DNA of 64,000 nucleotides, from NCBI GenBank assembly GCA_040767085.1, contig JAXGPF010000013.1:129093-193092 (forward strand), read 5' to 3'. The notes under the pieces were generated by a model. The model did not search any database. It was not told the DNA's origin and was given only the letters and a program-made list of their open reading frames with translations. Shown here piece after piece: positions 2,624-25,182 of the stretch (positions are counted from its first letter, which is position 1; the number at the start of each line of letters is the position of its first letter). Made by a program: the position numbers and the translations under genes. The stretch is from Kiritimatiellia bacterium (GTDB lineage Bacteria; Verrucomicrobiota; Kiritimatiellia; JAAZAB01).

Positions 2624-3467
2624 GGTCCCCCGCCACCGCCACCATGGCCAATTGCATGCGATCCGCCGCCTGGATCACTTTCTCGCGCTCCAGCAAAATT
2701 GTGCGGCCAGCTTCCACGGCCAGCGCGCCGGCGCCGGCTTTCTTGAGGATGGCCATGGTTTTCAGACCCACCACCGGGATATCGAAGCGCATGTCATGCC
2801 CTTGCTTGGCGACTTTCACCGCTACCAGGCCCAGGCCGCCCAGTTTGCCGGCTCGCAGCAAGGCGGCATCCGTGCCCTCAAACGCTTCGACGGCGAGGAT
2901 GACGCCTTCCTTGACGGCCACCGTCTGGCCGATTTCCAGGCTGCTGATGGTTTTGGCCACGCGCAGACCCAGTTCAATATCGCTTTGTTCGCGCGCGGTC
3001 GGCGCGCGCGCGCTCAATTGGCCGGGCGCCGGCATGGCCTGCTCCATGAACAGCCAGGCCGGCAGCAAGGTCACCCCCGCGGTTTGCAACTCGGCGCTGA
3101 CGGCGCCGAAAATAGTATGGGCATTGCGCGCCCGCAAGCCGGCCAGGATTTGCAGGGCCCGGCGGTCCGGGCGCAGGCGGAAAAGGCTGGTAGGGGTGAT
3201 CTGGCCGGCCATCACCGCCTGGCGGATGCCGGCGCGGCGGAGCAATGTCAGCATGGCCTCCAGTTGGCCGAAATTCAGCCAGTGGACTTCATCCGCCAGT
3301 TTGGCGATGGACGGATCGGTTTCTTTCTTGAAGGCCACGGCCACCAGGCGTTGGACTCCCTGGCGCCGGGCGGATTCCGCCAGCAGCAGCGGGTAGGCGC
3401 CGCGCCCGGCGATCAGGCCTAGCTGGTCGGGCAGGGCAATGCTGGGATTGAGTTTGCTGGCGGGCAT
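2610..3467 (-). CDS. lpxI: UDP-2,3-diacylglucosamine diphosphatase LpxI (DUF1009)
   Basis: LGLIAGRGAYP, EIGQTVAV, AVEAFEGTD, DMRFDIPVVG, LAVEAG motifs. Confidence 0.9.
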   Translation of the reverse strand: MPASKLNPSIALPDQLGLIAGRGAYPLLLAESARRQGVQRLVAVAFKKETDPSIAKLADEVHWLNFGQLEAMLTLLRRAGIRQAVMAGQITPTSLFRLRPDRRALQILAGLRARNAHTIFGAVSAELQTAGVTLLPAWLFMEQAMPAPGQLSARAPTAREQSDIELGLRVAKTISSLEIGQTVAVKEGVILAVEAFEGTDAALLRAGKLGGLGLVAVKVAKQGHDMRFDIPVVGLKTMAILKKAGAGALAVEAGRTILLEREKVIQAADRMQLAMVAVAGDHGAN

Positions 3468-7718: not shown

Positions 7719-8015
7719 CACCTTAATCCGTGACGGGATTTTATGTTGTTAAGACAATGTCTGAATAAACAACAATTTATGAAGTTTTACAATATCACCA
7801 AAGATGTGCGGCGTTGTTTGACTGAAAAGACCGCCCTGCGGGTGAGGCCATTGTGCCGCATCTGCTTTGTTGCGAAGGATCCCGCTTTGCGGGATAAACT
7901 TGCGGCTTGTCCCGCTATAGCGGGATATGTTTATACAGCTTCATCCTTCGCGCCGCGCATCCTTGTCCCGCTTCCAGCGGGATGCGGCATACTGGCCTCA
8001 TCACGGATTCAGGTG
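7719..8015. mobile_element. MITE-like element with 15-bp terminal inverted repeats and an internal branched hairpin
   Basis: CACCTTAATCCGTGA (7719-7733) vs TCACGGATTCAGGTG (8001-8015), 14/15 complementary; nested stems 7843-8000. Confidence 0.6.
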
Positions 8016-8111
8016 TTATCCAGCGCACAGAATGGCCGGCCGCCAGGCCGCGCTTGCCTGCCGGCAATGGGCCGCCGGGATGGCGGTCCATTGCCATGCC
8101 GGGCAGCGGTA

Positions 8112-9929
<1,818 letters not shown>

Positions 9930-10080
9930 GTTTGATTGCTTTGCTTGGTTTGCGGGCTTGGTTGATAATGAGTTAAGCTCCAGGCGGAAACAGCCCAATA
10001 ATTTCCGGCTAAACTGGAAAACCTGCCATTTTCCGCTGCAAATAGCAAGCTAAAAAATGTTTATGCGAATTTTAACGGGT

Positions 10081-10226
10081 GGGCTGCGTCATTTTCAGAA
10101 CAGACGGATCGGTACGGAGACCTCGCCCTACCATCGGATCAAAGGACTGGCCGCCCTACCGGTTCACAAGCATTTGTCGTGGGTAGGGCGAGACCTCCGG
10201 GCGAGCCGCCGAAAATGACGCAGTCC
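10081..10226. repeat. REPIN/MITE-like element: 13-bp terminal inverted repeats enclosing three GTAGGGCG REP-like arms
   Basis: CTGCGTCATTTTC (10084-10096) / GAAAATGACGCAG (10211-10223); internal CGCCCTACC twice and GGTAGGGCG once. Confidence 0.65.
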
Positions 10227-10264
10227 TGATTTTAACTGCTGGTCCCGGCCGGCGGCGGGCGGGT

Positions 10265-10633
10265 TTATGCCTCGCGTCGCGGCGGCAGGGGCTTCTTGAC
10301 GCCTGCTTCGTCCAGGCGCACGAAGGTGATGGCGGTGCTGAAAATATGGCGTTCGGGCCGGTCGCCCGCCGCGACTTCAAACACATCCACGCTGTAGGAA
10401 GTCGAGGTGGTGCCGGTGCGGACATGGGCGGAGCGGAACCGCAGGATGCCGCCGTTCTCGACGCGTTGCCGGAAGACAATCCGGTCCATGGCGATGGTCA
10501 CCAGGACGCACCCGGGGAAATCCAGCGAAGCGGCGATCCAGGCGAATTCATCCACCCACTTCAAGAGCGCCCCTCCGAAAAGGAATCCCTGGTGGTTCAA
10601 GTGTTCCGGCCGCACGATGACGTAATTGTCCAT
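10265..10633 (-). CDS. Acyl-CoA thioesterase (hotdog fold)
   Basis: VRPEHLNHQGFLFGGALLKWVDE, VRTGTTS, ITFVRLDE. Confidence 0.9.
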   Translation of the reverse strand: MDNYVIVRPEHLNHQGFLFGGALLKWVDEFAWIAASLDFPGCVLVTIAMDRIVFRQRVENGGILRFRSAHVRTGTTSTSYSVDVFEVAAGDRPERHIFSTAITFVRLDEAGVKKPLPPRREA

Positions 10634-10775
10634 AGCTTGTATTATAAAGCGCGCGGGCGCGGTTAAGCAAGCAATACTTGAAGTCCAGCCGATTAATTAT
10701 CTTGACTCGCCCCGCATGCCGGATATCGTTTTGGGCTGTGTGTCTGTGTGTTCTTTCTTTTGGAAGGAGTAAGTC

Positions 10776-12059
10776 ATGCCGTGGTTTGTCGTCGAAAAGG
10801 AATCGGTATCCAAGGCTGAAATGCTGGATCTGGCGGAGCGGGCGGCGGCGGAGGCGTTGCGCCGGATCTGCCCCAACCCGAAACGCGTTTTGCTGCTTCC
10901 GCCGGACATTACCCGCGCGCATTGCGGCGCCGGCTGGATTACCAACCGGTTTTACCACATTTTCGCCCAAATGGCGGAAGTGCACCTGATTCCGACGCTG
11001 GGGCAGCATGTGCCGCATACCCCGGAACAGAATGCCTGGATGTTCGGCGATATCCCTGAAGAACGCATCCACGCCCACGACTGGCGTTCCGGGTCGAAAG
11101 TCATCGGCGAAGTCCCGGCCGGGTTCGTGAAGGATGTTTCCCGGGGCAAGGCCGATTGGCCGATCCCGGTCTCGCTGAACCGGATGCTTTTGGAGGGCAA
11201 GTGGGACTTGATCGTCAATATCGGGCATATCGTTCCGCACGAGGTGCTGGGATTCGCCAACCACAATAAAAACTACTTTATCGGCCTGGGCGGCAAGGAC
11301 ATGATCTGCGCCTCGCATATCATGGCGGCATGCTGCGGCATTGAAAACAACCTGGGCCGGATCACCACCCCCTTGCGCGCCTGTTACAACAAGGCCGAGG
11401 CGGATTATCTCGGCCATTTACCCGACCTGTTCTTCCAGGTGGTCATGGCCTACAATCAAGAGGGGCGTTTGAACCACACCGGCGTGTATGTCGGCGACGA
11501 CGTGGAAACCTATTTGCGCGGCGCGCAGGCATCGCGGCAACAGAACATAACCGTGACGCCGCCGCTGCAAAAGGTGGTGGCCGTGATGCAGGGCGACGAG
11601 TTCCACAGCACCTGGGTGGCCAACAAGGCGATTTACCGCACCCGCATGGCCATGGCCGATGGCGGGGAACTGCTCATCATCGCGCCGGGCTTGCAACGGT
11701 TCGGCGAGCAGCCGGATGTGGACGCCCTGATCCGCCGATACGGCTACCGCGGCACGCCGCGCATCATGCAGTTATGGAAAACCGAACCCGTGCTGCAGGA
11801 CCTGACCCATGGCACCGCCCACCTCATTCACGGTTCGTCCGAGGGCCGGTTCAAAATCACCTACGCGCCGGGACACCTGACCGCCGATGAAATCCATGGC
11901 GTGGGGTATGAATACGCCGACCTGGCCGCTATGCAGGCGCGGTATCATCCGGACCGGATGAAATACGGATTCAACACCATGCCGGACGGCGAGACGGTGT
12001 ATTACATTGCCACGCCGTCGGCGGGATTGTGGAGCACGCGCGAACGCCTGGGCGCCTGA
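10776..12059 (+). CDS. Lactate racemase (LarA/DUF2088) family nickel-pincer epimerase
   Basis: PPDITR, TLGQH, PHEVLGFANHNK (His and Lys 10 apart, as in LarA H174/K184), ANKAIY..MAMADGG; AAGGAG RBS. Confidence 0.8.
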   Translation: MPWFVVEKESVSKAEMLDLAERAAAEALRRICPNPKRVLLLPPDITRAHCGAGWITNRFYHIFAQMAEVHLIPTLGQHVPHTPEQNAWMFGDIPEERIHAHDWRSGSKVIGEVPAGFVKDVSRGKADWPIPVSLNRMLLEGKWDLIVNIGHIVPHEVLGFANHNKNYFIGLGGKDMICASHIMAACCGIENNLGRITTPLRACYNKAEADYLGHLPDLFFQVVMAYNQEGRLNHTGVYVGDDVETYLRGAQASRQQNITVTPPLQKVVAVMQGDEFHSTWVANKAIYRTRMAMADGGELLIIAPGLQRFGEQPDVDALIRRYGYRGTPRIMQLWKTEPVLQDLTHGTAHLIHGSSEGRFKITYAPGHLTADEIHGVGYEYADLAAMQARYHPDRMKYGFNTMPDGETVYYIATPSAGLWSTRERLGA

Positions 12060-12078
12060 AGGCAGCGCTGATTTAATA

Positions 12079-13008
12079 ATGATTACAAGCGCCAAAAAGC
12101 GCTGGTCCGGATGCCTGGCCATGATGCTGGCCCTGGCCATGTTGGCCGCCTGCCGGCCGGCCTCGCCGCCGCGCTCCCGCGCGGCGCCGGCGCAGGCGCC
12201 GCGGCGCATCGTCTCGCTCTCGCCTGCCATCACGGAAATATTGTTCGCCATCGGCTGCGGCGAGTGGGTGGTTGGCGTCACCTCGTTTTGCAAATATCCG
12301 CCGGCGGCCGCGGCGCTGCCGAAAGTCGGCGGGTTTTACGATACCAATTACGAATTGGTGATGTCGCTCCGGCCGGACCTGGTGCTGCACACCATCGAGC
12401 ATGAAGCGGCGGCGCAAAACCTGCAGGCGCTGGGGCTGGAGTGCCAGGCGTTGTCGCTCTTGTCATTGCCGGATATCATGGCGTCCATCCGCCGGGCGGG
12501 CGAACTGTGCCATGCCGCGGCACCGGCGGCAGCGCTGGCGGATGACGTTCAGGCGCGGATGGATGCCGTTCGCGCCCGGATTCCCCCCGGCGCGCCGGCG
12601 CCGGCAGTCCTGGTTTGCATTGGCCGCAACATGGGGACAGGCGGGCTGTCGGATGTGTACCTGGCCGGGCCGGGCACGATTTACGGCGAAATGCTGCAAT
12701 TGCTCGGGGCGCGCAATGTCTATCAAGGCCGCCTGGCTTACGCCCAGGTCGGGCGGGAGGGCATTTTGCGGATGAACCCGGACGTGATTATTGATCTGGC
12801 CCCGGATTTGAACATTACCAATGCCGCTGCCCGCGCGCAATTCCAAGCCGATTGGAACAAGCTGACCTCCGTGCCGGCCGTCAAGCAGCGCCGGGTATAT
12901 GTGCTGGGTGGCGATTATGTCTGCATCCCGGGGCCGCGTATTGCCCGGACCCTGGCGGACCTGGCGGCGGCCATCTATCCCGGCGGTGCGCCGGAGGAGG
13001 CGCCATGA
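12079..13008 (+). CDS. ABC transporter substrate-binding lipoprotein, BtuF/helical-backbone type
   Basis: Lipobox LAAC, RIVSLSPAITEILFAIG..VVGVTSFCKYP, LRPDLV, NPDVII, PGPRI. Confidence 0.88.
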   Translation: MITSAKKRWSGCLAMMLALAMLAACRPASPPRSRAAPAQAPRRIVSLSPAITEILFAIGCGEWVVGVTSFCKYPPAAAALPKVGGFYDTNYELVMSLRPDLVLHTIEHEAAAQNLQALGLECQALSLLSLPDIMASIRRAGELCHAAAPAAALADDVQARMDAVRARIPPGAPAPAVLVCIGRNMGTGGLSDVYLAGPGTIYGEMLQLLGARNVYQGRLAYAQVGREGILRMNPDVIIDLAPDLNITNAAARAQFQADWNKLTSVPAVKQRRVYVLGGDYVCIPGPRIARTLADLAAAIYPGGAPEEAP

Positions 13009-13790
13009 CCGCGCCCCTGGTGCAAATACGCGGCTTGGGCCTGCGGCTTGACGGCAAAGATATCCTCCAGGCGCTTGACCTCGAGGTCTGGCCGGGCGAA
13101 TTCCTGGCGCTGGTTGGCCCGAATGGCGCCGGCAAAACCAGCCTGATCAAGTGCCTGGCCGGCCTGCATCGCGCCTGGAGCGGCGAGATCATGCTGTCCG
13201 GCCGGAATTTGCGCCGGTACAGCCGCCGCGCGCTGGCTTGCCGGATCAGTTGCGTTTCCCAGGCGGAAGAGGCAGACATCCCATTCACCTGCCTGGAATT
13301 CGTTCTGATGTCGCGCTACCCGCATTTGTCGCCGTTCACCACCTTGCGCGCGGCCGACCGTGAATTGGCCGCGCAAGCCCTGGCATTGACCGGCATGCAG
13401 CATCTGCGCGACCGCCGGCTGGACACGCTCAGCGGCGGCGAACGCCGGATGGCGATGATTGCCGCCGCGCTGGCGCAAGGCGCGGAGCTGATGCTGCTGG
13501 ACGAGCCCACGGCCTTTCTGGACTACCAACATCAGCGCCAGGTATTGCAACTGCTGGGCGATTTGAACCGCCGGCGCGGTTTGACGGTGATTGCCGCGCT
13601 GCATGACATCAATGCCGCCTGCCGCTGGAGCGCGCGGGTGGCCGCCTTGCGGGGCGGTCGGCTGGTGTCCTGTACGCCGCCGGCCGATTTGCTCCAGCCG
13701 GAAGCGTTGCGCGCGGTTTACGATGCTCCGTTCAGTTTTGCCCGGCTGCCGGACGGCCGGCCGCTGGCCGTAGTGGAGGATGTTTCGTGA
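13005..13790 (+). CDS. ABC transporter ATP-binding protein, BtuD/FecE type
   Basis: GPNGAGKT, LSGGE, LLDEPT, LHDIN; ATGA overlap with the upstream stop. Confidence 0.92.
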   Translation: MTAPLVQIRGLGLRLDGKDILQALDLEVWPGEFLALVGPNGAGKTSLIKCLAGLHRAWSGEIMLSGRNLRRYSRRALACRISCVSQAEEADIPFTCLEFVLMSRYPHLSPFTTLRAADRELAAQALALTGMQHLRDRRLDTLSGGERRMAMIAAALAQGAELMLLDEPTAFLDYQHQRQVLQLLGDLNRRRGLTVIAALHDINAACRWSARVAALRGGRLVSCTPPADLLQPEALRAVYDAPFSFARLPDGRPLAVVEDVS

Positions 13791-14785
13791 AACCAATGTC
13801 CCGCCTGTGGATTCTGATCTTGCTGGGGCTGATGGCGGCGGGTGTCATCTGCGCGGCGCCCATGCTGGGCATGGATTTCATACCGCTGCATACCTTGCTG
13901 ACCGCGCCGGAAAGCCTGGCGGCGTCGGTGCTCCGCGATATCCGCCTGTCGCGCGTTTTGACCGCCTTCTGCGTCGGCAGCGCGCTGGCATTGAGCGGGG
14001 CGGCGTTTCAAAGCATGTTCCGCAATCCGCTGGCCACGCCGTTCACCCTGGGGGTGGCTTCCGGCGCGGCGTTCGGCAGCGCCATGTATATCCGGCTCGG
14101 GTCAAAAATTCTACCGGCCGGCGTGAATGGCGTCGCCCTGGCCGCCTTCGCCGGCAGCCTGCTGGCCATCGGGTTGGTTTACGGCCTGACCCGGCTGCGG
14201 CGCGGGTTTTCCACGGCCACGTTGCTGCTGGCGGGTGTGGCGGTGAGTTTTTTCTTTTCCAGTCTGATAATTTTCGTCCAATACATCAGCGGCCTGGGCC
14301 ATTCCTTCCGGATCATGCGGTGGATGATGGGGTCGGTGGAGACCGCCGGCTTTGCGCCGGTATTGGGATTATTACCGTTTATCCTGCCGGGCGCGGCCAT
14401 CATCTTCCTGCTCTGCCGGGAATTGAATCTGCTGGCGCTGGGCGACGACTTGGCTGCCAGCCGCGGGGTGGATGTGAACCGCGTGAAGCAATTGGTTTTT
14501 TTCGCCGCCTCGCTCATGGTCGGCGGAGTGGTGGCGGTATGCGGTCCGATCGGGTTTGTCGGGATGATGGCGCCGCATGCCTGCCGGATGCTGCTGGGGC
14601 ATGACCACCGGTTTCTGTTGCCGGGGGCCTTGCTGGCCGGCGGCATCTTCCTGGTGATTTGCGATACATTGGCGCGCACCATGGTGGCGCCGCTGGAAAT
14701 CCCCGTGGGTGTGATCACCGCGCTGCTGGGCGGGCCGTTTTTCCTGTGGATCATGCTGACCCGGTCCGACCGCGCGGGCAGGTAG
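13787..14785 (+). CDS. ABC transporter permease, BtuC/FecCD family
   Basis: IRLSRV, FRNPLATPFTLGVASGA, LGDDLAASRGV, GPIGFVG, EIPVGVITALLGGPFF. Confidence 0.92.
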   Translation: MKPMSRLWILILLGLMAAGVICAAPMLGMDFIPLHTLLTAPESLAASVLRDIRLSRVLTAFCVGSALALSGAAFQSMFRNPLATPFTLGVASGAAFGSAMYIRLGSKILPAGVNGVALAAFAGSLLAIGLVYGLTRLRRGFSTATLLLAGVAVSFFFSSLIIFVQYISGLGHSFRIMRWMMGSVETAGFAPVLGLLPFILPGAAIIFLLCRELNLLALGDDLAASRGVDVNRVKQLVFFAASLMVGGVVAVCGPIGFVGMMAPHACRMLLGHDHRFLLPGALLAGGIFLVICDTLARTMVAPLEIPVGVITALLGGPFFLWIMLTRSDRAGR

Positions 14786-14854
14786 GGGGTTGCGGCAGGC
14801 GCCCGCGCTTCCGGGCGCCTGCCTTTGGACAACGGTTATTCGAGGTCCAGCCGG

Positions 14855-16468
14855 TTATTTGAGGTCCAGCCCAAGCAGCGCCTGTCCCGGCGCCGGGTTC
14901 AACACCAGCCGTTCCCCCGCTGGCTCCTCGGCGTCTGTTAATTCCATGACCATGCTGGCGCCGCCATCGCCGGCCTGCGCGAGCAGCAGGTTGCCCGCCA
15001 GGCTGCGAACAATCCAGCCGGGGATGGCATCGGCAACCACGGTGTAGCCGGCCAGATGCCCGGCGCCGTCTAATTGCGCGATCGCGGCCGCGCCGCCGTC
15101 GCCGGCCTGCGCCAGCAGCCGGTTGCCGTCCAGGTCCCGCGCAATCCAGCCCGGCACCGCATCGGCTACCATGATAAAATCACCCAGCGCATAGCCGGGG
15201 CCGAATGCCTGGATGCCCACCATGCCGCCGTCGCCGGCCTGCGCCAGGATCCGGTTGCCGTCCAGCGCGCGGGCGATCCAGCCCGGCACGGCATTGGCCA
15301 GCATGACGATGTTGGCGGGTTGGCTGTTGGCATCCAGTTCGACGATGGCGACCGCGCCGCCGTCGCCGGCCTGCGCCAGCAGCCGGTTGCCGTCAATGCC
15401 GCGGACAACCCAGCCGGGCGCGCTGTCCGTCACCGCGGCCAGGCGCAGGGTCTGGCCTTGATCGTTCAGTCCGATGAGCGTCAGGGCGCCGCCCGGGCCG
15501 GCCTGGGCGATCAGGCGCAGTGTGCGCGCGGCGTTGATGGCAAAGACGCCCTCCGACGTGCTGGCGTAAATTGCGCCGTCACGCAGGCGCACGGTGTCCA
15601 GGCGCTCATCCGCGCGGGCCACTACCTCGTAGCCGATGCAAAGGCCGTTCAACACCAGCAGCCGGTGCAATTCGCTGGGAGCGGCAAAGGAAGTGGCGGC
15701 GGACAGGATGTGTCCATCGGGATCGGCCTGGATGCCGGTGCAGCCGTCGCCGGCCGCCAGCAGTGTCCAGCGATGGCCGTCGGGCTGCAAGGGCGCGCCC
15801 GAGGGATCGGCCAGGGCGGCGGCGACTTCCGCGGCGCTCCAGCGATACAGCGTGGGTCCGGCGGTGTTATACCCCTCCGTGTAGAAAAGATTGCCATCTG
15901 CGTCGAAAGCCAGCGGGCCGCTGGCATTGCCGATGATGCCGAGGTTGACTGGCGGGTTGTTGACCAGGTCGCCGTTAGCGTCCAGCGCGCTCTGGTAAAT
16001 CGCGGCATCGGTGCCGCCCGCGGCCCAGAAGTCGCTGCCATCGCGCGTTTCCAGGCCCCAGAGGTCGGCGGCAATGCCCAGGTTGGTTGGCGCTTCGGCG
16101 CCCGCCGGGTTATACCGGAAATAATTGTAATTCCAGTTGTCGTAATTGCCGCCGTCGTTGAAGTAGATCATCCCGCCGATGGCGGTGACCCGCGAGCCGG
16201 AAAAGGAGTTGGTGTCCTGATACAATATTTCCGCCGCGGCGCCGTCATAACGGTAAACGGCAAATCCCAGGTCCCAGAAAGGGTGGCGGGTGGAGTAAAA
16301 CAGGTTGCTGGCGGCGTCCCAGTCGAAAGATACCAGGGCGGCATCGGGGTGGGGATTGGCGTAATAGGATTCAGCTTGATAGCCAATCCCGGGGATGAAT
16401 GCTGCGCAAACCATGCCGGCCTGCGCGGCCAGCCCAATACTGACGAACCACTTGATCGCTTGCTTCAT
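14855..16468 (-). CDS. Exported hypothetical protein; propeller-like N-terminus and five 44-aa C-terminal repeats
   Basis: Signal peptide MKQAIKWFVSIGLAAQAGMVCA; GPLAFDADGNLFY; repeated LLAQAGDGG...PGWI.R.LDGN. Confidence 0.75.
   Translation of the reverse strand: MKQAIKWFVSIGLAAQAGMVCAAFIPGIGYQAESYYANPHPDAALVSFDWDAASNLFYSTRHPFWDLGFAVYRYDGAAAEILYQDTNSFSGSRVTAIGGMIYFNDGGNYDNWNYNYFRYNPAGAEAPTNLGIAADLWGLETRDGSDFWAAGGTDAAIYQSALDANGDLVNNPPVNLGIIGNASGPLAFDADGNLFYTEGYNTAGPTLYRWSAAEVAAALADPSGAPLQPDGHRWTLLAAGDGCTGIQADPDGHILSAATSFAAPSELHRLLVLNGLCIGYEVVARADERLDTVRLRDGAIYASTSEGVFAINAARTLRLIAQAGPGGALTLIGLNDQGQTLRLAAVTDSAPGWVVRGIDGNRLLAQAGDGGAVAIVELDANSQPANIVMLANAVPGWIARALDGNRILAQAGDGGMVGIQAFGPGYALGDFIMVADAVPGWIARDLDGNRLLAQAGDGGAAAIAQLDGAGHLAGYTVVADAIPGWIVRSLAGNLLLAQAGDGGASMVMELTDAEEPAGERLVLNPAPGQALLGLDLK
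14860..15520 (-). repeat. Intragenic tandem repeat, 5 x 132 nt
   Basis: GCCGGCCTG(C/G)GC anchor at 14969, 15101, 15233, 15365 and 15497. Confidence 0.85.
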
Positions 16469-16592
16469 GTTTTACGGATTCCCTGTGTGTTTTACGGATT
16501 GTGCGGCAATCAATTTAATAGGCGTTGGCTGCGGTTTGTGTCTGGTCCTGCGTTCCCTCCTTCTTGGACTTAACTATGGTCTGTCCGGTGAA

Positions 16593-18833
16593 TCAATCCG
16601 CGGTTATCCGGTCCAACCAGATGGACGCCGCGGCGTCCAGGTCGAAGCCGGCCTTGGCGTCGCCGCGGTCGGCGGCGTTCATTTCCTCGGGATGATGAAT
16701 CAGATCGCCATCGGCATCCGCCAGCCAGCGGTTGCCGGTGGATTGAATGCGCACAAAGCGAATCCAATCCAGACCCAGTTCCCCGATATCGAAAGAATCG
16801 CCGCCCGAGACGGCGGGGTCCGTGGGGTCCGGGTCCAGGCCGTTGCTCATGACGGGATTAACGCCGGCGAAACCGGTGTGATAGCAATAAGGATGGCGGA
16901 GGTTGAGTTGGCCGGTGGCCGGATCGTACCGCGGCGAAAAATCGGCGGGGAATTGATGCCAGGCCAGGCCATCCTGGCTGACCGACACCAGGGCCGGCTC
17001 CATGAACCGGGTGGTCGGATCGAGCGCGCCGGCCGCGCCGTTGACATAGAACACGTTTTCAAAAATGGTGAAATCGGCGCCCGGCCCATTCCACACGGTA
17101 TTGTCGGCGAATTCCAGCGTGATGACTCCGCCATACGGAGCGGCGGCGCCGCCGTCATCGTTGCTGGCGGCGCCCAGCGAGACGATATCCGCCGAGCCGT
17201 GCGCCAATCCCGCGCCGCGGGGCGCGCCCAGGACGATGCCCGGGAGTTCGGCGGCCCGGAAGGCATTGGGGTGGAGCAATCGCGCGTCCGCCACGCGGTC
17301 GGCGAATGGTTCGGCGTCCGGCGGCAGGCGGACTTGCAGGATCGGCGGCGGCGCCCCGGTGACTGCCAGGCCGGATTCTTCGAGGAAAGCAGTGTAATAA
17401 TAGACGCCCGCGGCGAGATTCTCGTCCAGGCATTCTGTTCCGGCGCCGTAATAGATGGCAACGCCGTCCGTTGGCTGCAGCGGGGGCGCGCCGGCGCTTC
17501 TGACAATCCGGGCTGCGGCGTTAATGCTGTTTTCCGGCAAGTCCCAGGTCAGCGCCACGCGGGTGCGGCTCAAAAAAGCTGTCAGATTGGATATTCTGCC
17601 CGGCGTGGCCGGCAGTACCTGCAGGATGAATTGCACGGCGTCGGACTGACCCGCGGCGTCTTGCACGCTGACAGCAATTTCGTAGGCGCCGACGGCGGAG
17701 GGTTCGCCCGCGAAAGCGCCATCCGGTGAGAACCAGAGTCCGGGCGGCGGCGCTCCGGCAATGCTCCAGGTGTAGGGTTCAAGGCCGCCCGCTGCCTGGA
17801 AGGCATACGCGAACGATTGGCCTTGGCGGATGGGCGCGGCCGGGACTTCCAGGATATCGGGGGCGGCGCGGACGCGCAGAGTAAATTCCCGGGCAACGCT
17901 TTGCTGGGCATCGTGCAGCCAGACCATGACCGGCATATCGGCAGGCGGGGCGTTGCTGTCAATTTCCCCGAAAATTTCGCCGGTAATTTGGTTCAGGATG
18001 AAGGCGCCCCAGGTTGACAAATCGCCCTCGGCGCTCCAGGTGTACGGCGGGATGCCGCCCGCCGCTTCAAGTTGGCAGCAATAATATCCGCCCGGCGCGG
18101 CCGCCGGCAGGATAGGCGTCAGAATCTCGAGCGGATTCTCCGGCGCAATGGTCAGGACGTATTCCGCCATGTCGCCGGCGCCGCGGCTGTCGGCTACCGC
18201 CAGGCGGAAAACCGCCGATGCCGGAGTGTCGGCGATCCCGGTCAGGCGGCCGCTGATATCCAGCGCCAATCCCGGCGGCAGCGTGCCGGCGGCGATTTGC
18301 CACTGGTACGGCGGTTGGCCGCTGGCAGCCGCGAATTGAACGGAGTAGGGCTCGTTCACCCGGCCCGGCGGCAGGGCGCCGGTGGTAATGTACACAAGAT
18401 TGGTGCCGCCGCCGACGGTTGGAATCCATTTGCCGCCACGGCGGATGGCGCCGAACCGTTCACGGATGGCGGCTTCCTTGGCCGGCTCCTCCAACGGGAG
18501 TCCGCCGGCCTCCGCCTGAAGTTGCATTGCCGGGGCATTGGAAACTTCCGGCGGAAATGCGCCGCCATCGGGATTTTTGGCCGCAGGTGCGGCCGGCACA
18601 GCCGCGGCCTGGTCCGGCGCGCTGGAAAGAGTTTGGGCGGCGGTGCGCTCCAGGGTGGATATTTCATCCGGCAAGCCGCCGGCGCCCGCCGATGCATCCG
18701 CTGGCAAAACCGGGCCGGCGCCGGCGCCCTGGCTGAAGTTGCCCGAGAGCAGGCAGGCGCAACCCATCAGGCCGGCAATGCCGGCCATGCCGGCCAGGTA
18801 AAATTTGATTGTCCGCTTTGCCGCGGCGCGCAT
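16593..18833 (-). CDS. Surface protein with putative Ig (He_PIG-like) repeats and a C-terminal cell-surface domain
   Basis: Hydrophobic N-terminus with LMGC; Ala/Pro linker; three repeats of GxxPYxW..G.LPPGL; C-terminal VSLG..GGVITLEF..NGPGADFTIFEN..VSVSQDG..GGDSFD; start moved to 18833 because the upstream part is riboswitch leader. Confidence 0.8.
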   Translation of the reverse strand: MRAAAKRTIKFYLAGMAGIAGLMGCACLLSGNFSQGAGAGPVLPADASAGAGGLPDEISTLERTAAQTLSSAPDQAAAVPAAPAAKNPDGGAFPPEVSNAPAMQLQAEAGGLPLEEPAKEAAIRERFGAIRRGGKWIPTVGGGTNLVYITTGALPPGRVNEPYSVQFAAASGQPPYQWQIAAGTLPPGLALDISGRLTGIADTPASAVFRLAVADSRGAGDMAEYVLTIAPENPLEILTPILPAAAPGGYYCCQLEAAGGIPPYTWSAEGDLSTWGAFILNQITGEIFGEIDSNAPPADMPVMVWLHDAQQSVAREFTLRVRAAPDILEVPAAPIRQGQSFAYAFQAAGGLEPYTWSIAGAPPPGLWFSPDGAFAGEPSAVGAYEIAVSVQDAAGQSDAVQFILQVLPATPGRISNLTAFLSRTRVALTWDLPENSINAAARIVRSAGAPPLQPTDGVAIYYGAGTECLDENLAAGVYYYTAFLEESGLAVTGAPPPILQVRLPPDAEPFADRVADARLLHPNAFRAAELPGIVLGAPRGAGLAHGSADIVSLGAASNDDGGAAAPYGGVITLEFADNTVWNGPGADFTIFENVFYVNGAAGALDPTTRFMEPALVSVSQDGLAWHQFPADFSPRYDPATGQLNLRHPYCYHTGFAGVNPVMSNGLDPDPTDPAVSGGDSFDIGELGLDWIRFVRIQSTGNRWLADADGDLIHHPEEMNAADRGDAKAGFDLDAAASIWLDRITAD

Positions 18834-18870
18834 AAAAAAACCTCCAGGCTCCCGTGAAAGAGTCTGAAGG
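18834..18870 (-). terminator. Riboswitch expression platform: hairpin plus U7, with the GGAGG SD inside the stem
   Basis: Minus strand CCTTCAGACTC-tttcacgg-GAGCCTGGAGG-TTTTTTT-ATG. Confidence 0.75.
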
Positions 18871-18952
18871 CATTGAGAACACTGCGCGCCTGTCATTCTC
18901 CTTTCATGCGAAGGAGCCGCGGCGGCGCCAAGCGCCGCCCAATAACAGCGTG

Positions 18953-19180
18953 TTAAACAACGTCTCCTGACTTCCGGCTTCCAGCCTAATCCTTCGCCTT
19001 CCCCCGCCATTCAAAGCGGGGTGGCCAATGAAGTTTCGCCGCGTCATCCCGAGCGCCAAGGGCGGATCGGGATAAGCGGTCACGTTCCTCGCGCGCGCAG
19101 GCGCAGCGGGATTGCGTGATAGCCGGTCACAGTGGCGCGACCGTATCCGATTTGCACGGATTTCCGTTTGTTTCCCACGA
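18953..19180 (-). ncRNA. Cobalamin (B12) riboswitch
   Basis: Minus strand AAACGGAAATCCGTGCAAATCGGATACGGTCGCGCCACTGTGA ... GCCAC ... GGGAAGG ... AGCCGGAAGTCAGGAGAC follows the conserved block order of the cobalamin aptamer, including the B12 box. Confidence 0.9.
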
Positions 19181-19300
19181 AAAATTCTGCCAAAGAACAA
19201 TGTGAATTAATACGGGAGGGATATAAAACCAAGCCGGCGGATTTGTCAAGCAAAATTAACAGCAAAAAATAACAGCAGAAATAACAGCATGGCGTTGCGC

Positions 19301-19329
19301 TTGACACGGCCGTCCGGCTAAATTATTGT
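19301..19329 (+). promoter_or_regulatory. Sigma70-type promoter of the regulator (divergent TTGACA on the minus strand at 19244-19249 for the riboswitch transcript)
   Basis: TTGACA-N17-TATTGT, 9 nt before ATG at 19339. Confidence 0.55.
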
Positions 19330-19338
19330 GCATAACTG

Positions 19339-20760
19339 ATGAAAACGCGGATTTCAAGGATATTATCAGGCAAGGAAGCAAGCCTGCTCCGCGCCGGTGC
19401 GGAAAGCATTTTGGAAAGCATTTCCGACGGAGTCTTCACGGTGGACGCTGATTGGCGCATTTCCTCGTTTAACCGCGCCGCGGAAAAGATCACCGGCATC
19501 CGGCGGCGCGAAGCCCTGGGGCGGCCGTGCGCCGAGGTGTTCCGCTCCAATATGTGCGAGGCGGATTGCGCGCTCCGGCAGACCGTCAAGACCGGCAAGC
19601 CGATGGTCAACAAGTCCGCCTTTATCGTCACCGCCGCCGGGCGGCGCATACCCATTTCCGTCTCCACCGCCTTGCTGCGCGATGCCCGCGGTAAAATCAC
19701 CGGCGGTGCGGAAACGTTCCGCGATTTGAGCCTCGTGGAGGAATTGCGCAAGGAATTGGCCGGCCGGTTTCACATGGGCGACCTGGTGAGTTGCAGCCCG
19801 CTCATGCGCCGTATTTTCGAAATCCTGCCCCAGGTGGCGGCCAGCGATGCGACGGTGTTGATCCTGGGCGAAACCGGCACCGGCAAGGAACTTTTAGCCC
19901 GCGCCATTCATGCGGAAAGCCGGCGGCATGCCCGGCCGTTCGTGGCGGTGAACTGCGGCGCCTTGCCCGATACGCTCCTGGAATCGGAACTCTTTGGTTA
20001 CGTCAAGGGCGCCTTTACCGGGGCCGCGGCCGACAAGCCCGGCCGTTTTGCCCTGGCCGAAGGTGGCACGGTGTTCTTGGATGAAATCGGCGACATCAGC
20101 CCGGCGTTGCAGGTCCGGCTGCTGCGCGTGCTGCAGGAAAAAACCTTTGAGCCGCTTGGCGGAATCCAGCCCATTAACGCCAATGTCCGGGTGCTTGCCG
20201 CCACGCATCGCGATCTGCCGGCGCAAATCCGCAAAGGACATTTCCGCGAGGATTTGTTTTACCGGCTGAATGTCATCAGCCTGGATTTGCCGCCCTTGCG
20301 CCGGCGTAAGGAGGATTTGCCGCTGCTGGTGGACCATTTTATCGCGCGGTATAACCGCCGGGACGGCAGAACCGTTGGCGGCGTGATGCCGGAAGTCATG
20401 GCGATTTTAATGGCGCATGATTATCCTGGTAATGTGCGGGAATTGGAAAACATTATCGAGCGCGCTCTGGTGCTGTGCCCGGCCGGCAAAATCGAACCGC
20501 GGCATTTGCCGCCGGAACTCGTTGCGTGGAGCGCGGCCGCCGGGGCCGCGCCGACCGCGGGCGCCGCCATGGCTGTGCAGAAACATGCCGTCGAGGCGCA
20601 GGCCATCCGCGCGGCGCTGGAGCGCAACCATTACAATCGCCTGGCAGCCGCTCGCGAACTGGGCGTGCATAAAACCACCTTGTTCCGTAAAATCCGGCAA
20701 TTAGGATTGGACTTGCCTCGAACGGATGGCCGCGCGCGCCGGCGCCGCCCCGACAATTAA
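19339..20760 (+). CDS. PAS-domain sigma54-dependent activator, OrpR-like
   Basis: PAS with C-X8-C-X3-C (CAEVFRSNMCEADC), GETGTGKE, ESELFG..GAFTGA, FLDEIGD, FREDLFYRL, Fis-type HTH. Confidence 0.92.
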   Translation: MKTRISRILSGKEASLLRAGAESILESISDGVFTVDADWRISSFNRAAEKITGIRRREALGRPCAEVFRSNMCEADCALRQTVKTGKPMVNKSAFIVTAAGRRIPISVSTALLRDARGKITGGAETFRDLSLVEELRKELAGRFHMGDLVSCSPLMRRIFEILPQVAASDATVLILGETGTGKELLARAIHAESRRHARPFVAVNCGALPDTLLESELFGYVKGAFTGAAADKPGRFALAEGGTVFLDEIGDISPALQVRLLRVLQEKTFEPLGGIQPINANVRVLAATHRDLPAQIRKGHFREDLFYRLNVISLDLPPLRRRKEDLPLLVDHFIARYNRRDGRTVGGVMPEVMAILMAHDYPGNVRELENIIERALVLCPAGKIEPRHLPPELVAWSAAAGAAPTAGAAMAVQKHAVEAQAIRAALERNHYNRLAAARELGVHKTTLFRKIRQLGLDLPRTDGRARRRRPDN

Positions 20761-21022
20761 TGCTACGGAAATCCTCCCCCGGGAAAAATCTACCCCCAAA
20801 CGGTTCATTTCCGGGCGTGATCATTACCCCGTCCGCCTTCTGCTGGCAGGGGGCATTTGGCGCCGGTCATATTATTCTTTTGCGGTTCATCTCACTAATA
20901 AATCCAGCTTGCCTGAAACACCTTACGCGTTAGCGGCAATGGACCTCTAAGCCGGATGCGTTATTGCCATGCCGGTGGCAGCGTGCGGTGCAATCCGCGG
21001 TTCAAGGTACTGGCGTAAAAGT

Positions 21023-21071
21023 TGCGATAATGCTGCTGTTAGTGCTTGTATAAGTGCAATAAAGCTACTGT
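21023..21071 (+). promoter_or_regulatory. Candidate tandem upstream activator sites
   Basis: TGCGATAATGCTGCTGT (21023) and TGCAATAAAGCTACTGT (21055), 32 bp apart, about 100-135 bp upstream of the sigma54 promoter. Confidence 0.5.
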
Positions 21072-21155
21072 AAACGCGGTCAACATTTTTGCAAAACAAT
21101 GCTTATGTCATTGATGGAGAATATTTAAAGTAAATATTTGGTTTAAATTCGTTGT

Positions 21156-21172
21156 TTGGCACGATTTCTGCA
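21156..21172 (+). promoter_or_regulatory. Sigma54 (-24/-12) promoter
   Basis: TTGGCACGATTTCTGCA (GG-N10-GC) directly upstream of the cluster. Confidence 0.88.
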
Positions 21173-21184
21173 TTATAAAGGAAC

Positions 21185-21583
21185 GTGCAACTTGGATTGA
21201 CAATTTGGAATGGGCGGATTTCGCCGGTGCTGGATGTGGCGCGCCGGTTGTTGCTGGTGGAGGTGGAAGATGGGCGGGTGTCGGACCGGCGGGAGGAATT
21301 GCTGCCCGGTGTTTCTCCGCCGGCTCAAGTTGAGCGGCTGGCGGCGCTGGCGCCGCAGGTTTTGATTTGCGGCGCCATCTCGCAGGCAATGGTGGCTTTG
21401 CTGGCAGGCTTGCCGATGCAGGTGCTGCCGTTTGTGGCCGGTGAAACGGAGACAGTGCTTCAGGCTTGGCTGGACGGGTCGCTGGCAAGCCCGGGGCTGG
21501 CCATGCCCGGGTGTTGCGGCCGGCGCCGGCGCGGGTTTGGATGCGGCCCGGCGCGGGGCCGTGGCGGAAGGAGATGTTTTTAA
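21185..21583 (+). CDS. NifB/NifX-family (FeMo-cofactor-binding fold) protein with a Gly/Arg/Cys tail
   Basis: WNGRISPVLDVA, VLICGAIS, VLPFVAG, MPGCCGRRRRG; AAAGGA RBS and GTG start. Confidence 0.8.
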   Translation: MQLGLTIWNGRISPVLDVARRLLLVEVEDGRVSDRREELLPGVSPPAQVERLAALAPQVLICGAISQAMVALLAGLPMQVLPFVAGETETVLQAWLDGSLASPGLAMPGCCGRRRRGFGCGPARGRGGRRCF

Positions 21584-23285: not shown

Positions 23286-23355
23286 CATGCCCCCATGCTT
23301 CGCGCAGCGCTACGCATAAAAATTGTCTTTAAATTTCAACCTAAAGAAATCCATC

Positions 23356-25182
23356 ATGATTTTAGCGATTGCCAGCGGCAAGGGCGGGACCGGCAAGACA
23401 ACCTTTGCCGTTAATCTGGCCTATGCGCTTGCCCAAAGGGGAGAACGGGTCAGACTTTTGGATTGCGATGTCGAGGAACCGAACGACCACTTGTTTGTCC
23501 GGCCAAAATTCACCGCCCGGAATCCGGTCATGGCGCTGAAACCGGTCTGGGATTCATCCAAATGCGATGCCTGCGGCAAATGCGCCGCCGCCTGCAATTA
23601 TAACGCGATTGCGGTGGTTAAAAACAAGGTTTTGATATTCAACGAACTGTGCCATTCCTGCGGCGCGTGCTCGTTTGTCTGTCCGTGTGACGCCTTGTCG
23701 GAACGGGACGCTGAAATTGGGGAAGTGGAAGCGGCGTTGGATCATCACCCGTTTGGGTTCGCGCATGGAAAGTTGAACATCGGCGAGGCGCTGGCGCCCA
23801 ATGTCGTCCGCGCGGTTAAAAAACATATTGATCCGCAGGCGATCAACATCCTCGATGCCGCGCCGGGCACGGCATGCCCGGTGGTGGCGGCCGTCGGCGG
23901 CGCCGATTGTGTATTGCTGGTGACCGAACCTACGCCGTTCGGTTTGAACGATTTGAAACTCGCCGTGGGCTTGACTTTGAAAATGGGGGTGCCGACAGGC
24001 ATTCTGGTAAATCGTTCGGACGGCAAGGATGCCATTATTGCCGACTATGCCCGGCGCGTCGGATTGCCGATCGCAGGGCGCATTCCATTCAAACGGGAAT
24101 ACGCCGAAGCCTATTCCGGCGGCGGGATCCTGGTGGAAACGTTCCCGGAATTGCGCGCCAACCTGCTGCAGATTTTCGATCGCCTGGCGACCGCCACCCC
24201 CCCGGCGCCGGCGGAAGAGCCGTTTGCCGTCTCCCCTGGCATTCCGCCGCCGTTAGCTGCGGGCAATGCGGATGATTACCGGGAGATCACCGTCATCAGC
24301 GGCAAGGGCGGCACGGGGAAAACCACGGTGGTGGCATCCTTGGCCCATCTGGCGCATAACAAGATTATGGCTGATAATGATGTGGATGCCGCCGATTTGC
24401 ATCTGCTGCTGACCCCGGTAGTGCGCGAGCAGCATGATTTTATCGGTAGCGCCAAGGCGGAGATCATCTCCGACAAGTGCATCGGCTGCGGTAAATGCGC
24501 GCAAGTTTGCCATTTCGACGCGATCCATTTTGACGGCTCCGCCAATGACATTGTCGGTTTGACATACCGGATTGACCCCCTGGCCTGCGAAGGTTGCGGG
24601 CTGTGTCCCATGGTTTGCCCGGTTGAGGCGATCCGCAAAACGCCGAATGTCACCGGTCAATGGTATATCTCCAGCACGGATTTCGGCCCGATGGTCCACG
24701 CCCGCCTGGGCATGGCCGAGGAAAATTCCGGGCGGCTGGTGGCGCAGGTGCGCCGGCGCGCCGCGGAACTGGCCGGCAAATTGAAGCAGAGTTTGATCCT
24801 GGGCGATGGCCCTCCGGGCACGGGCTGCCCGGTGATCGCCTCGGTCTCCGGCGCCGACCTGGTGTTAATCGTTACCGAGCCGACAGTCTCCGGCGTCCAT
24901 GACATGGAGCGGGTGCTCCAACTGACGCGGCATTTCCAGGTGCCGGCAGCGGTGGTGATCAACAAGGCGGACTTGAACGCGGAACAGGCCGGCCGCATCG
25001 AAAAAATTGCGCGGGAGCATAATGCGCGGGTGATTGGCCGCATACCATTCGACCGCGCGGTCAACGACGCCTTGATGGCGGGTAAAACCGTCATTGCCCA
25101 TGGCTCCAGCCCGGCCGCTGACGCCTTGCGCGCTGTCTGGCATGCATTGGAGGCGGAACTGGCGCAGTTGCGCGGCGGTTGA
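23356..25182 (+). CDS. Tandem-fused MinD-superfamily P-loop ATPase, each half with an inserted ferredoxin domain
   Basis: Two SGKGGTGKTT motifs, DCDVEEPN and DNDVDAAD, four CxxCxxCxxxC motifs, two PGT.CPV and VTEPT motifs. Confidence 0.9.
   Translation: MILAIASGKGGTGKTTFAVNLAYALAQRGERVRLLDCDVEEPNDHLFVRPKFTARNPVMALKPVWDSSKCDACGKCAAACNYNAIAVVKNKVLIFNELCHSCGACSFVCPCDALSERDAEIGEVEAALDHHPFGFAHGKLNIGEALAPNVVRAVKKHIDPQAINILDAAPGTACPVVAAVGGADCVLLVTEPTPFGLNDLKLAVGLTLKMGVPTGILVNRSDGKDAIIADYARRVGLPIAGRIPFKREYAEAYSGGGILVETFPELRANLLQIFDRLATATPPAPAEEPFAVSPGIPPPLAAGNADDYREITVISGKGGTGKTTVVASLAHLAHNKIMADNDVDAADLHLLLTPVVREQHDFIGSAKAEIISDKCIGCGKCAQVCHFDAIHFDGSANDIVGLTYRIDPLACEGCGLCPMVCPVEAIRKTPNVTGQWYISSTDFGPMVHARLGMAEENSGRLVAQVRRRAAELAGKLKQSLILGDGPPGTGCPVIASVSGADLVLIVTEPTVSGVHDMERVLQLTRHFQVPAAVVINKADLNAEQAGRIEKIAREHNARVIGRIPFDRAVNDALMAGKTVIAHGSSPAADALRAVWHALEAELAQLRGG

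Follow-up and report, generated by a model that had tools for sequence, protein, structure and literature searches.

A cobalamin riboswitch ahead of genes for a BtuH-like lipoprotein and a tandem beta-propeller protein: a probable cobamide-scavenging pair in a Kiritimatiellia bacterium

We analyzed a 64,000-nucleotide (64-kb) stretch of contig JAXGPF010000013.1 from a Kiritimatiellia bacterium (the window, which here means the whole of this stretch), in which a cobalamin riboswitch stands ahead of two minus-strand genes, gene A and gene B, that are convergent with a plus-strand operon for an ATP-binding cassette (ABC) importer. The window belongs to genome G000, which comprises 4.08 Mb in 28 contigs and is 95% complete. 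Gene A encodes a predicted lipoprotein whose distal domain is a distant relative of the B12-binding domain of BtuH, and gene B encodes an exported protein modeled as two beta-propellers. The gap from gene A to gene B measures 124 nt, and sequence scans found neither a riboswitch nor a terminator-like site inside it. The main features of the locus are as follows.

18944..19204, minus strand: cobalamin riboswitch aptamer RF00174 with a 92-nt lineage-specific insertion (Rfam)
16593..18833, minus strand: gene A, 746-aa BtuH-like lipoprotein
18429..18833, minus strand: gene A signal peptide with lipobox (LMGC, Cys25) and 110-residue Ala/Gly/Pro-rich linker (sequence, composition count)
17328..18428, minus strand: three He_PIG Ig-like repeats of gene A, then an FN3-like beta-sandwich (Pfam, motif positions, model)
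16617..17315, minus strand: distal domain of gene A, residues 507-739, BtuH-type augmented jelly-roll, putatively corrinoid-binding (AlphaFold2 model, VIA-align, profile)
14855..16468, minus strand: gene B, 537-aa exported tandem beta-propeller protein
15524..16405, minus strand: N-terminal six-bladed propeller of gene B, residues 22-315 (alignment A2, model, VIA-align)
14858..15523, minus strand: C-terminal five-bladed propeller of gene B, with repeats of about 44 residues (..PGWIAR.LDGNRLLAQAGDGG..) (alignment, model)
12007..14785, plus strand: BtuF/BtuD/BtuC-like ABC importer operon (Pfam, NCBIfam)

The initial annotation of this stretch had described a B12 riboswitch ahead of the pair, an anchored protein with an Ala/Pro stalk, three immunoglobulin (Ig)-like repeats and a distal motif, an exported second protein, and the convergence of both genes on a BtuFDC-like ABC operon, with no TonB-dependent BtuB gene in the window. 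The aptamer was recovered by Rfam, the lipobox, linker and He_PIG repeats of the first protein and the signal peptide of the second were confirmed, the Pfam domains of the importer were those expected, and neither a receptor barrel nor a Plug domain was found genome-wide; only the start codon of gene A had to be amended. The open reading frame (ORF) tool placed this start at 19010, within the aptamer, and the ATG at 18833, seven bases past GGAGG, is the plausible start judging from the sequence. Downstream of the lipobox and linker, the He_PIG family (PF05345) matched gene A with an E-value of 2.2e-16, two stretches passing, and a PYxW motif occurred once per repeat, at residues 175, 263 and 353, while the FN3-like sandwich corresponds to strands 23-65 of the structure model. 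The distal domain, of about 235 residues, bears the motif VSLG..GGVITLEF..NGPGADFTIFEN..SGGDSFD and lies outside any Pfam model.

An AlphaFold2 model of the last 293 residues of gene A, built with 55 sequences, had a predicted local distance difference test (pLDDT) score of 93.3. When this model was compared to the PDB with Foldseek, 8blw_B and 7biz_B came out on top and were alone in having E <= 0.001 among at least 500 matches. VIA-align was used to re-score 982 of Foldseek's top chains, giving Z 13.7 for 7biz_A (root mean square deviation 3.5, 164 aligned residues, 20% identity, chain residues 317-592) and Z 13.4 for 8blw_B (root mean square deviation 3.7, 170 aligned residues, 24% identity, chain residues 392-660), with PAPP-A next best at Z 9.1 and the CBM32 domain of AlyQ at Z 8.3. 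According to the published descriptions, 7BIZ shows B12 in the C-terminal domain of Bacteroides thetaiotaomicron BtuH2 (BT1956; Putnam et al. 2022, PMC8941943), and chain B of 8BLW is BtuG1, the last approximately 250 residues of which form a BtuH domain (PMC10404256); the range matched in BtuH2 is its B12-binding domain, and that matched in BtuG1 is its BtuH domain (PMC8941943, PMC10404256).

Sequence homology was followed with alignments of increasing depth. The single domain (phmmer) and a mixed alignment, A1 (hmmsearch), reached no BtuH entry, A1 matching thrombospondin repeats. A domain-only alignment of 23 sequences, A3, matched residues 389-498 of 8blw_B among PDB sequences with an E-value of 2.9e-6, the only other match lying at E 0.64, and a 73-sequence alignment, A4, matched the same chain at E 8e-6. 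The A3 match spans just the first approximately 110 residues of the BtuG1 H-domain. Within the family, an invariant D-F-x-V-F-E-N..F stretch aligns with DFRILGN of BtuG1. The B12-contact residues reported for BtuH2 are Gln333, Asn399, Phe401, His476, Tyr510, Trp511, Trp577 and Leu578 (PMC8941943); as a guess, the Asn of the invariant stretch might be Asn399 of BtuH2. Altogether, the fold and the remote sequence homology, thin as the sequence link is, identify the distal domain as distantly related to the B12-binding domain of BtuH, and from this homology we infer that it binds cobamides. Given the VIA-align and Foldseek matches together with the published descriptions of 7BIZ and 8BLW, the fold and overall layout of gene A, as modeled, are those of BtuH2.

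We examined the genetic surroundings of homologous domains in two sets of genomes. Searching species-representative genomes with the single distal domain yielded 10 close loci, all from Kiritimatiellia and 63-86% identical; a cobalamin riboswitch lay directly upstream of the gene A homolog in all nine that could be tested, the tenth locus being cut by a contig end and thus left out of the tally. A genome search with A1 was dominated by Ig-repeat matches, so it served only to locate five full-length relatives and 12 distant loci and was redone with the domain-only alignment. The distant loci are copies from sampled Verrucomicrobiota genomes, with 26-34% identity in the alignment of the first twelve, and riboswitches there were counted as matches to clan CL00101 located upstream on the gene's own strand. 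Such a riboswitch was present at 7 of the first 12 distant loci (L043-L054), at both loci located via gene B (L066 and L067), and at 27 of a further 40 that were picked one per genome by score order, blind to RNA, making 36 of 54 in total, while opposite-strand riboswitches numbered 0 at the 54 loci. Because these genomes carry just one to four such riboswitches each (1, 4, 2, 2 with one of these below cut-off, 1 and 1 RF00174 matches in six genomes), chance co-location within about 6 kb is expected at far below one locus in 54. As separate observations, L007 carries two tandem cobalamin aptamers (L007:3818-4419) ahead of its gene A homolog, and in the congener L003 gene A, gene B and the ABC operon are each preceded by a riboswitch of their own (among them 2834-3001 and 7910-8098).

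The aptamer in the window scored 39.6 bits against a gathering cut-off of 31.5 (E 1.6e-6) and covered model positions 1-189, the full model; it was the sole Rfam match at the gathering threshold in the window and the sole cobalamin riboswitch found in the genome. The GCCACUG box is present and aligned, and the 92-nt insertion sits in a peripheral helix and lowers the Rfam score. Aptamers at the equivalent position of homologous loci scored 35.7-81.7 bits. Those of L001, L002, L005 and L008 are likewise long and low-scoring (238-278 nt, 36-48 bits), and those of the remaining relatives are compact (168-206 nt, 64-82 bits). A permissive riboswitch scan of 9800..21200 added nothing relevant and revealed no weaker riboswitch upstream of the ABC operon or between genes A and B. 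Two features flank the aptamer.

19220..19249, minus strand: possible sigma-70-type promoter, TTGACA, 18-nt spacer, TATATC (by eye; weak)
18834..18943, minus strand: expression platform, a GC-rich hairpin followed by a structure pairing the GGAGG ribosome-binding site and the AUG (minimum-free-energy fold)

The possible promoter ends about 15 nt ahead of the aptamer and was not flagged by a consensus scan, which demands T at position 6 of the second hexamer. The minimum-free-energy fold of 18815..18965 had a z-score of -2.2, with 8 of 200 shuffles equally stable. Since this fold pairs GGAGG and AUG, and since a scan found no terminator-like site between the aptamer and gene A, the riboswitch would appear to act by translational control.

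Gene B carries a signal peptide and gave zero matches to Pfam (even at E <= 10) or NCBIfam. A Cys in the signal-peptide region was kept in just 3 of 18 aligned homologs, and for this reason the gene B product, judging from its sequence, is not a lipoprotein. The structure model (pLDDT 90, predicted template modeling score 0.88) contains two beta-propellers, with blade counts from model strands of six (residues approximately 24-313) and five (317-536). The N-terminal propeller is the conserved part, many homologs having FG-GAP/VCBS repeats in place of the C-terminal repeats. With VIA-align, this propeller matched six-bladed propellers of the NHL/SGL/PQQ type on a flat plateau of Z 20-24, and because of this plateau the modeled fold points to nothing specific; BtuG was not among the best 50 Foldseek or VIA-align matches listed. 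ESM Atlas neighbors likewise belonged to NHL/SGL families. A complex prediction with the distal domain of gene A gave a score of 0.00 and counts neither way.

Gene order is more informative for gene B. In all 10 close loci it comes after gene A, and its homolog in L003 has a riboswitch of its own, between genes A and B. Of 151 genomes sampled from the class, eight have the N-terminal propeller, two of them as distant copies. In L066 the order is riboswitch, B-like gene, BtuH-like gene and N_methyl gene, and in L067 it is adenosylcobalamin (AdoCbl)-II riboswitch, B-like single propeller, TonB-dependent receptor and BtuH-like gene. Since the order in L067 resembles that of the propeller/receptor/BtuH sets in Bacteroides, gene B is read as another partner in cobamide handling that takes BtuG's position, though not as an established member of the BtuG family; by this analogy it may be a corrinoid-handling partner, either binder or adaptor, which is a weaker inference than that for gene A. 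When the gene B profile was aligned (hhalign) to the propeller-like genes preceding BtuH-like genes in L044 and L046, the probabilities were 0.7% and 2.3% and not significant, and these candidates were rejected. The match to the propeller-like gene of L053 was marginal (55%, E 1.2e-4, over the stretch NLY..VYRWSAAEVAAA..GAPL). A gene B homolog with two tandem N-terminal propellers occurs at L010:6698-9619 on the plus strand (974-aa frame, both E ~1e-103).

The importer operon on the opposite strand consists of three genes.

12007..13008, plus strand: Peripla_BP_2 binding protein (Pfam, E 4e-28)
12852..13790, plus strand: ABC ATPase (Pfam, E 7e-31)
13787..14785, plus strand: FecCD permease (Pfam, E 2e-89)

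The NCBIfam equivalogs fell below their cut-offs (BtuF, 81.7 versus 234 bits; BtuC, 232 versus 461 bits). The three genes are 56, 68 and 75% identical to those of the riboswitch-controlled operon of the congener L003, and this identity supports, at the level of sequence comparison, a BtuFCD role for the operon in the window. The importer operon seems to be headed by a LarA-type nickel-pincer enzyme gene (10776..12059, plus strand) that overlaps the start of the BtuF-like gene and that NCBIfam assigned to 'putative hexonate epimerase' with 571 bits against a cut-off of 500. The same LarA-type/BtuF-like arrangement is present in L001, L002 and L068 (85-93% identity), whereas the congener L003 has a cobalamin riboswitch there instead.

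To place the locus in the B12 metabolism of the organism, G000 was searched for further protein families; every one of these family searches recovered its targets in control genomes. Three B12-binding-domain ORFs were detected in the genome, and neither CbiC nor CobS was found. Because B12-binding-domain ORFs are present while CbiC and CobS were not found, the organism looks like a cobamide auxotroph whose sole B12-sensing switch governs genes A and B. DUF4465 was not found in G000, nor were the TonB-dependent receptor barrel, the Plug domain or the TonB C-terminal domain (TonB_C) in this 95%-complete diderm genome. TonB-dependent receptors are present in all five of the other genomes tested. 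Members of the same family have one to two receptors each, and one of them, G350, additionally has TonB and ExbB. Both G350 and another member, G182, possess the classical arrangement, in which a riboswitch heads an operon for the binding protein, receptor, permease and ATPase; in the genus of the window the ABC operon is without a receptor gene. A receptor may sit in the unassembled 5% of G000. The question raised by these data is how a 1.3-kDa cofactor passes the outer membrane of a B12-dependent non-producer in which neither a TonB-dependent receptor nor TonB was detected.

Taken together, these data indicate that genes A and B probably encode a B12-repressed scavenging pair, a stalked BtuH-type binder and a propeller partner, that feeds the ABC importer. 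At low intracellular corrinoid, the riboswitch would free the ribosome-binding site of gene A, and genes A and B would be produced from a single transcript. The gene A product would be lipid-anchored, its Ala/Gly/Pro linker and four beta-sandwich domains holding the BtuH-type domain off the membrane, and that domain would, from its homology, bind cobamides like its counterparts in BtuH2 and BtuG1. The gene B product would be secreted, with its N-terminal propeller serving as the second corrinoid-handling partner, whether binder or adaptor, in BtuG's place, and captured cobamide would then be handed to the adjoining BtuF/C/D-like importer. A bolder version, in which A and B are the sole B12-responsive genes of a diderm auxotroph without a TonB system and provide a TonB-independent cobamide route, with the N-terminal propeller of gene B founding a new corrinoid-binding family as the counterpart of BtuG, appears unlikely.

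Several results weigh against a scavenging pair. The riboswitch in the window scored only modestly above its threshold, at 39.6 bits, and no riboswitch was found within the DNA examined at 18 of the 54 distant loci, nor at L058 of G369, the one full-length relative that belongs to a different family of the phylum. None of the sequence searches, with the single domain, A1, A3 or A4, arrived at BtuH2 (7BIZ), and the jelly-roll fold is common to many carbohydrate-binding modules (CBMs), at Z about 8. Gene B matched solely generic six-bladed propellers, many of which are enzymes. Finally, with no btuB or TonB found in G000, the hand-over from BtuH to BtuBG has no receiver there.

The last point also bears on where the two proteins reside. 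The same proteins might be periplasmic, with the lipid anchor of A in either the inner membrane or the outer membrane's inner leaflet and B soluble, together holding or chaperoning cobamide from a TonB-independent entry to the BtuF-like protein. The plain signal peptide of gene B, with Cys at the cleavage region in only the 3 of 18 homologs mentioned above, a secretion or sorting signal seen on neither protein, and a genome in which receptor, Plug and TonB_C were not found are all consistent with this placement. However, distant members of the domain family bear extracellular sorting signals (PEP-CTERM, type IX secretion system (T9SS) tails or dockerin), BtuH2 is described as surface-exposed in Bacteroides (PMC10404256), and a 110-residue linker followed by four sandwich domains exceeds any periplasmic need, so that a periplasmic pair, the best placed of the alternatives, is unlikely.

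A different role for gene B, that of a corrinoid-remodeling or -releasing enzyme, such as a hydrolase of some bound or conjugated form that gene A supplies, is distinctly improbable. The best structural matches of its N-terminal propeller, at Z 20-24, are calcium-dependent lactonases, pyrroloquinoline quinone (PQQ) or sugar dehydrogenases and AA12 enzymes, and the NHL/SGL neighbors in the Atlas agree with such a role; but a plateau of equal Z reflects a shared fold only, no catalytic motif was identified, and zero Pfam or NCBIfam enzyme families were matched, even at E <= 10. It is very hard to credit that the distal domain is a CBM32-like carbohydrate-binding adhesin and the pair a surface glycan-binding system that is B12-regulated by happenstance, for although Z reaches 7-8 for CBM32, discoidin and F5/8-C modules and Kiritimatiellia are described in the literature as polysaccharide degraders, both BtuH entries score 4-5 Z units higher than any CBM, the profile reaches BtuG1 by sequence and zero CBMs, and the domain is systematically linked to riboswitches, TonB-dependent receptors and DUF4465.

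The scavenging pair can be compared with characterized cobamide-binding proteins. Gene A shares with BtuH2 a lipoprotein layout in which Ig-like domains on the N-terminal side precede a C-terminal globular domain, B12-binding in BtuH2, and the fold of that domain is common to the two (Z 13.7); both genes belong to a B12-riboswitch-controlled locus, that of BtuH2 being a cobamide uptake locus, and the non-B12 structures closest to either protein are CBM32 modules, AlyQ among them. The report on 7BIZ describes just weak similarity to other known structures, AlyQ included (PMC8941943). The two differ in that a sequence match between them is undetectable, and gene A has He_PIG repeats rather than PKD, an extra FN3-like domain and a long Ala/Gly/Pro linker. 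Gene A also comes from another phylum, with btuB found neither in the operon of the window nor in the genome, and its partner gene encodes a tandem propeller without a known family. More than 80% of gut BtuH homologs are reported to occur with btuB in a riboswitch-controlled cobamide locus (PMC8941943). For BtuG1, or BtuGH (BT1490, 8BLW chain B), fold (Z 13.4) and profile (E 2.9e-6) alike match the BtuH domain, and a propeller and a BtuH domain lie side by side, but they are fused there and encoded by separate genes in the window; moreover, BtuG is a seven-bladed lid of BtuB, whereas the gene B propeller is six-bladed and NHL/SGL-like and is followed by a second, five-bladed one. DUF4465 (PF14717) corresponds to BtuJ, for which B12 binding is reported for seven proteins including a verrucomicrobial one (10.1101/2025.08.21.671476). 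These proteins resemble gene A in being extracytoplasmic augmented jelly-roll B12 binders that occur beyond Bacteroidota, including in PVC (Planctomycetota-Verrucomicrobiota-Chlamydiota) bacteria, and are fused to a BtuH-like domain in L045, L054 and 8 of 113 representatives, but gene A has no DUF4465 match and belongs to a different family. The LIC_13355 family (NF033170) touches the domain but scores far below its cut-off, and the model carries no functional name.

Against this background, the proposal of the initial annotation that the locus is a candidate new cobamide-capture system stands in part. The guess at function gained from fold, remote homology, architecture and linkage, including the comparison with BtuH and BtuG and the survey of homologs behind B12 riboswitches that it had suggested, in which 8blw_B and 7biz_B ranked first and 9 of 9 close and 36 of 54 distant loci were linked, but the system is not wholly new, the distal domain being related to BtuH, which that annotation had mentioned only as an analogy. 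The riboswitch RNA and the binding domain belong to known kinds; what is new is the lineage (PVC, Kiritimatiellia), a stalk built of He_PIG and FN3-like domains, a tandem propeller as partner, the apparent lack of a TonB system, and the size and B12 linkage of an unannotated domain family. Such a system appeared in none of the best 12-15 literature matches listed for BtuH with PVC or for Kiritimatiellia with cobalamin or riboswitch. BtuH has so far been described as a gut-Bacteroidota accessory.

At E <= 0.001 the A3 profile matched 4609 clusters (50% identity), and 1461 still matched at E <= 1e-30; the domain-only profile detected the domain in 74 of 401 sampled Verrucomicrobiota genomes, or 48 of 184 genera. 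A 2026 review places BtuH 'predominantly in Bacteroidota', plus three Firmicutes (PMC13616437); the domain is thus far more widespread than this published, Bacteroidota-centered range. Among the first 12 distant loci, a TonB-dependent receptor stood in the same gene row at four, DUF4465 was fused to the domain in two and was a separate gene in two; receptors accompany the BtuH-like gene in the distant relatives L043, L048, L050, L052 and L067. The 113 representatives, which are the shortest among the best 150 A3 clusters, included eight with a DUF4465 fusion, others carrying T9SS tails, PEP-CTERM, PKD or dockerin, and no Pfam model covered the domain itself in any of those scanned. In each fusion, a single chain combines two putative B12-binding domains that come from separate families. 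The only curated model touching the domain, NF033170 (LIC_13355 family lipoprotein), matched 18 of the 23 A3 members (best E 1.7e-13), all far below its cut-off, with 42.6 versus 120 bits for the domain in the window. In the records listed, short members go by the public names 'PEP-CTERM/VPLPA-CTERM sorting domain-containing', 'dockerin type I domain-containing' or 'hypothetical' and come from methanotrophs, Desulfobacterota, Planctomycetota and Verrucomicrobiota. With about two-thirds of the loci tested wired to cobalamin riboswitches, thousands of unannotated exported proteins acquire a testable function, and the spread of the domain suggests that lipoprotein-assisted cobamide scavenging may be a general strategy.

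Some further observations were made on these loci. The chains that combine DUF4465 and a BtuH-like domain are located at L045:3803-5398 and L054:2618-5188, both on the minus strand, and the fused representatives are P0173, P0199, P0210, P0211, P0253, P0254, P0271 and P0272. A prepilin-type N_methyl/DUF1559 (SBP_bac_10) pseudopilin-like gene lies directly downstream of the BtuH-like gene in 5 of the 12 distant loci and in L066 (L044, L045, L047, L051, L054 and L066, riboswitch-controlled operons of other Verrucomicrobiota); the operon in the window has no such gene. Elsewhere in the window, a PAS-domain sigma-54 activator is encoded at 19339..20760 on the plus strand, divergent from the promoter region of the riboswitch, and a 619-aa ORF at 23323..25182, also on the plus strand, joins a CbiA/ParA-type P-loop domain to 4Fe-4S ferredoxin domains.

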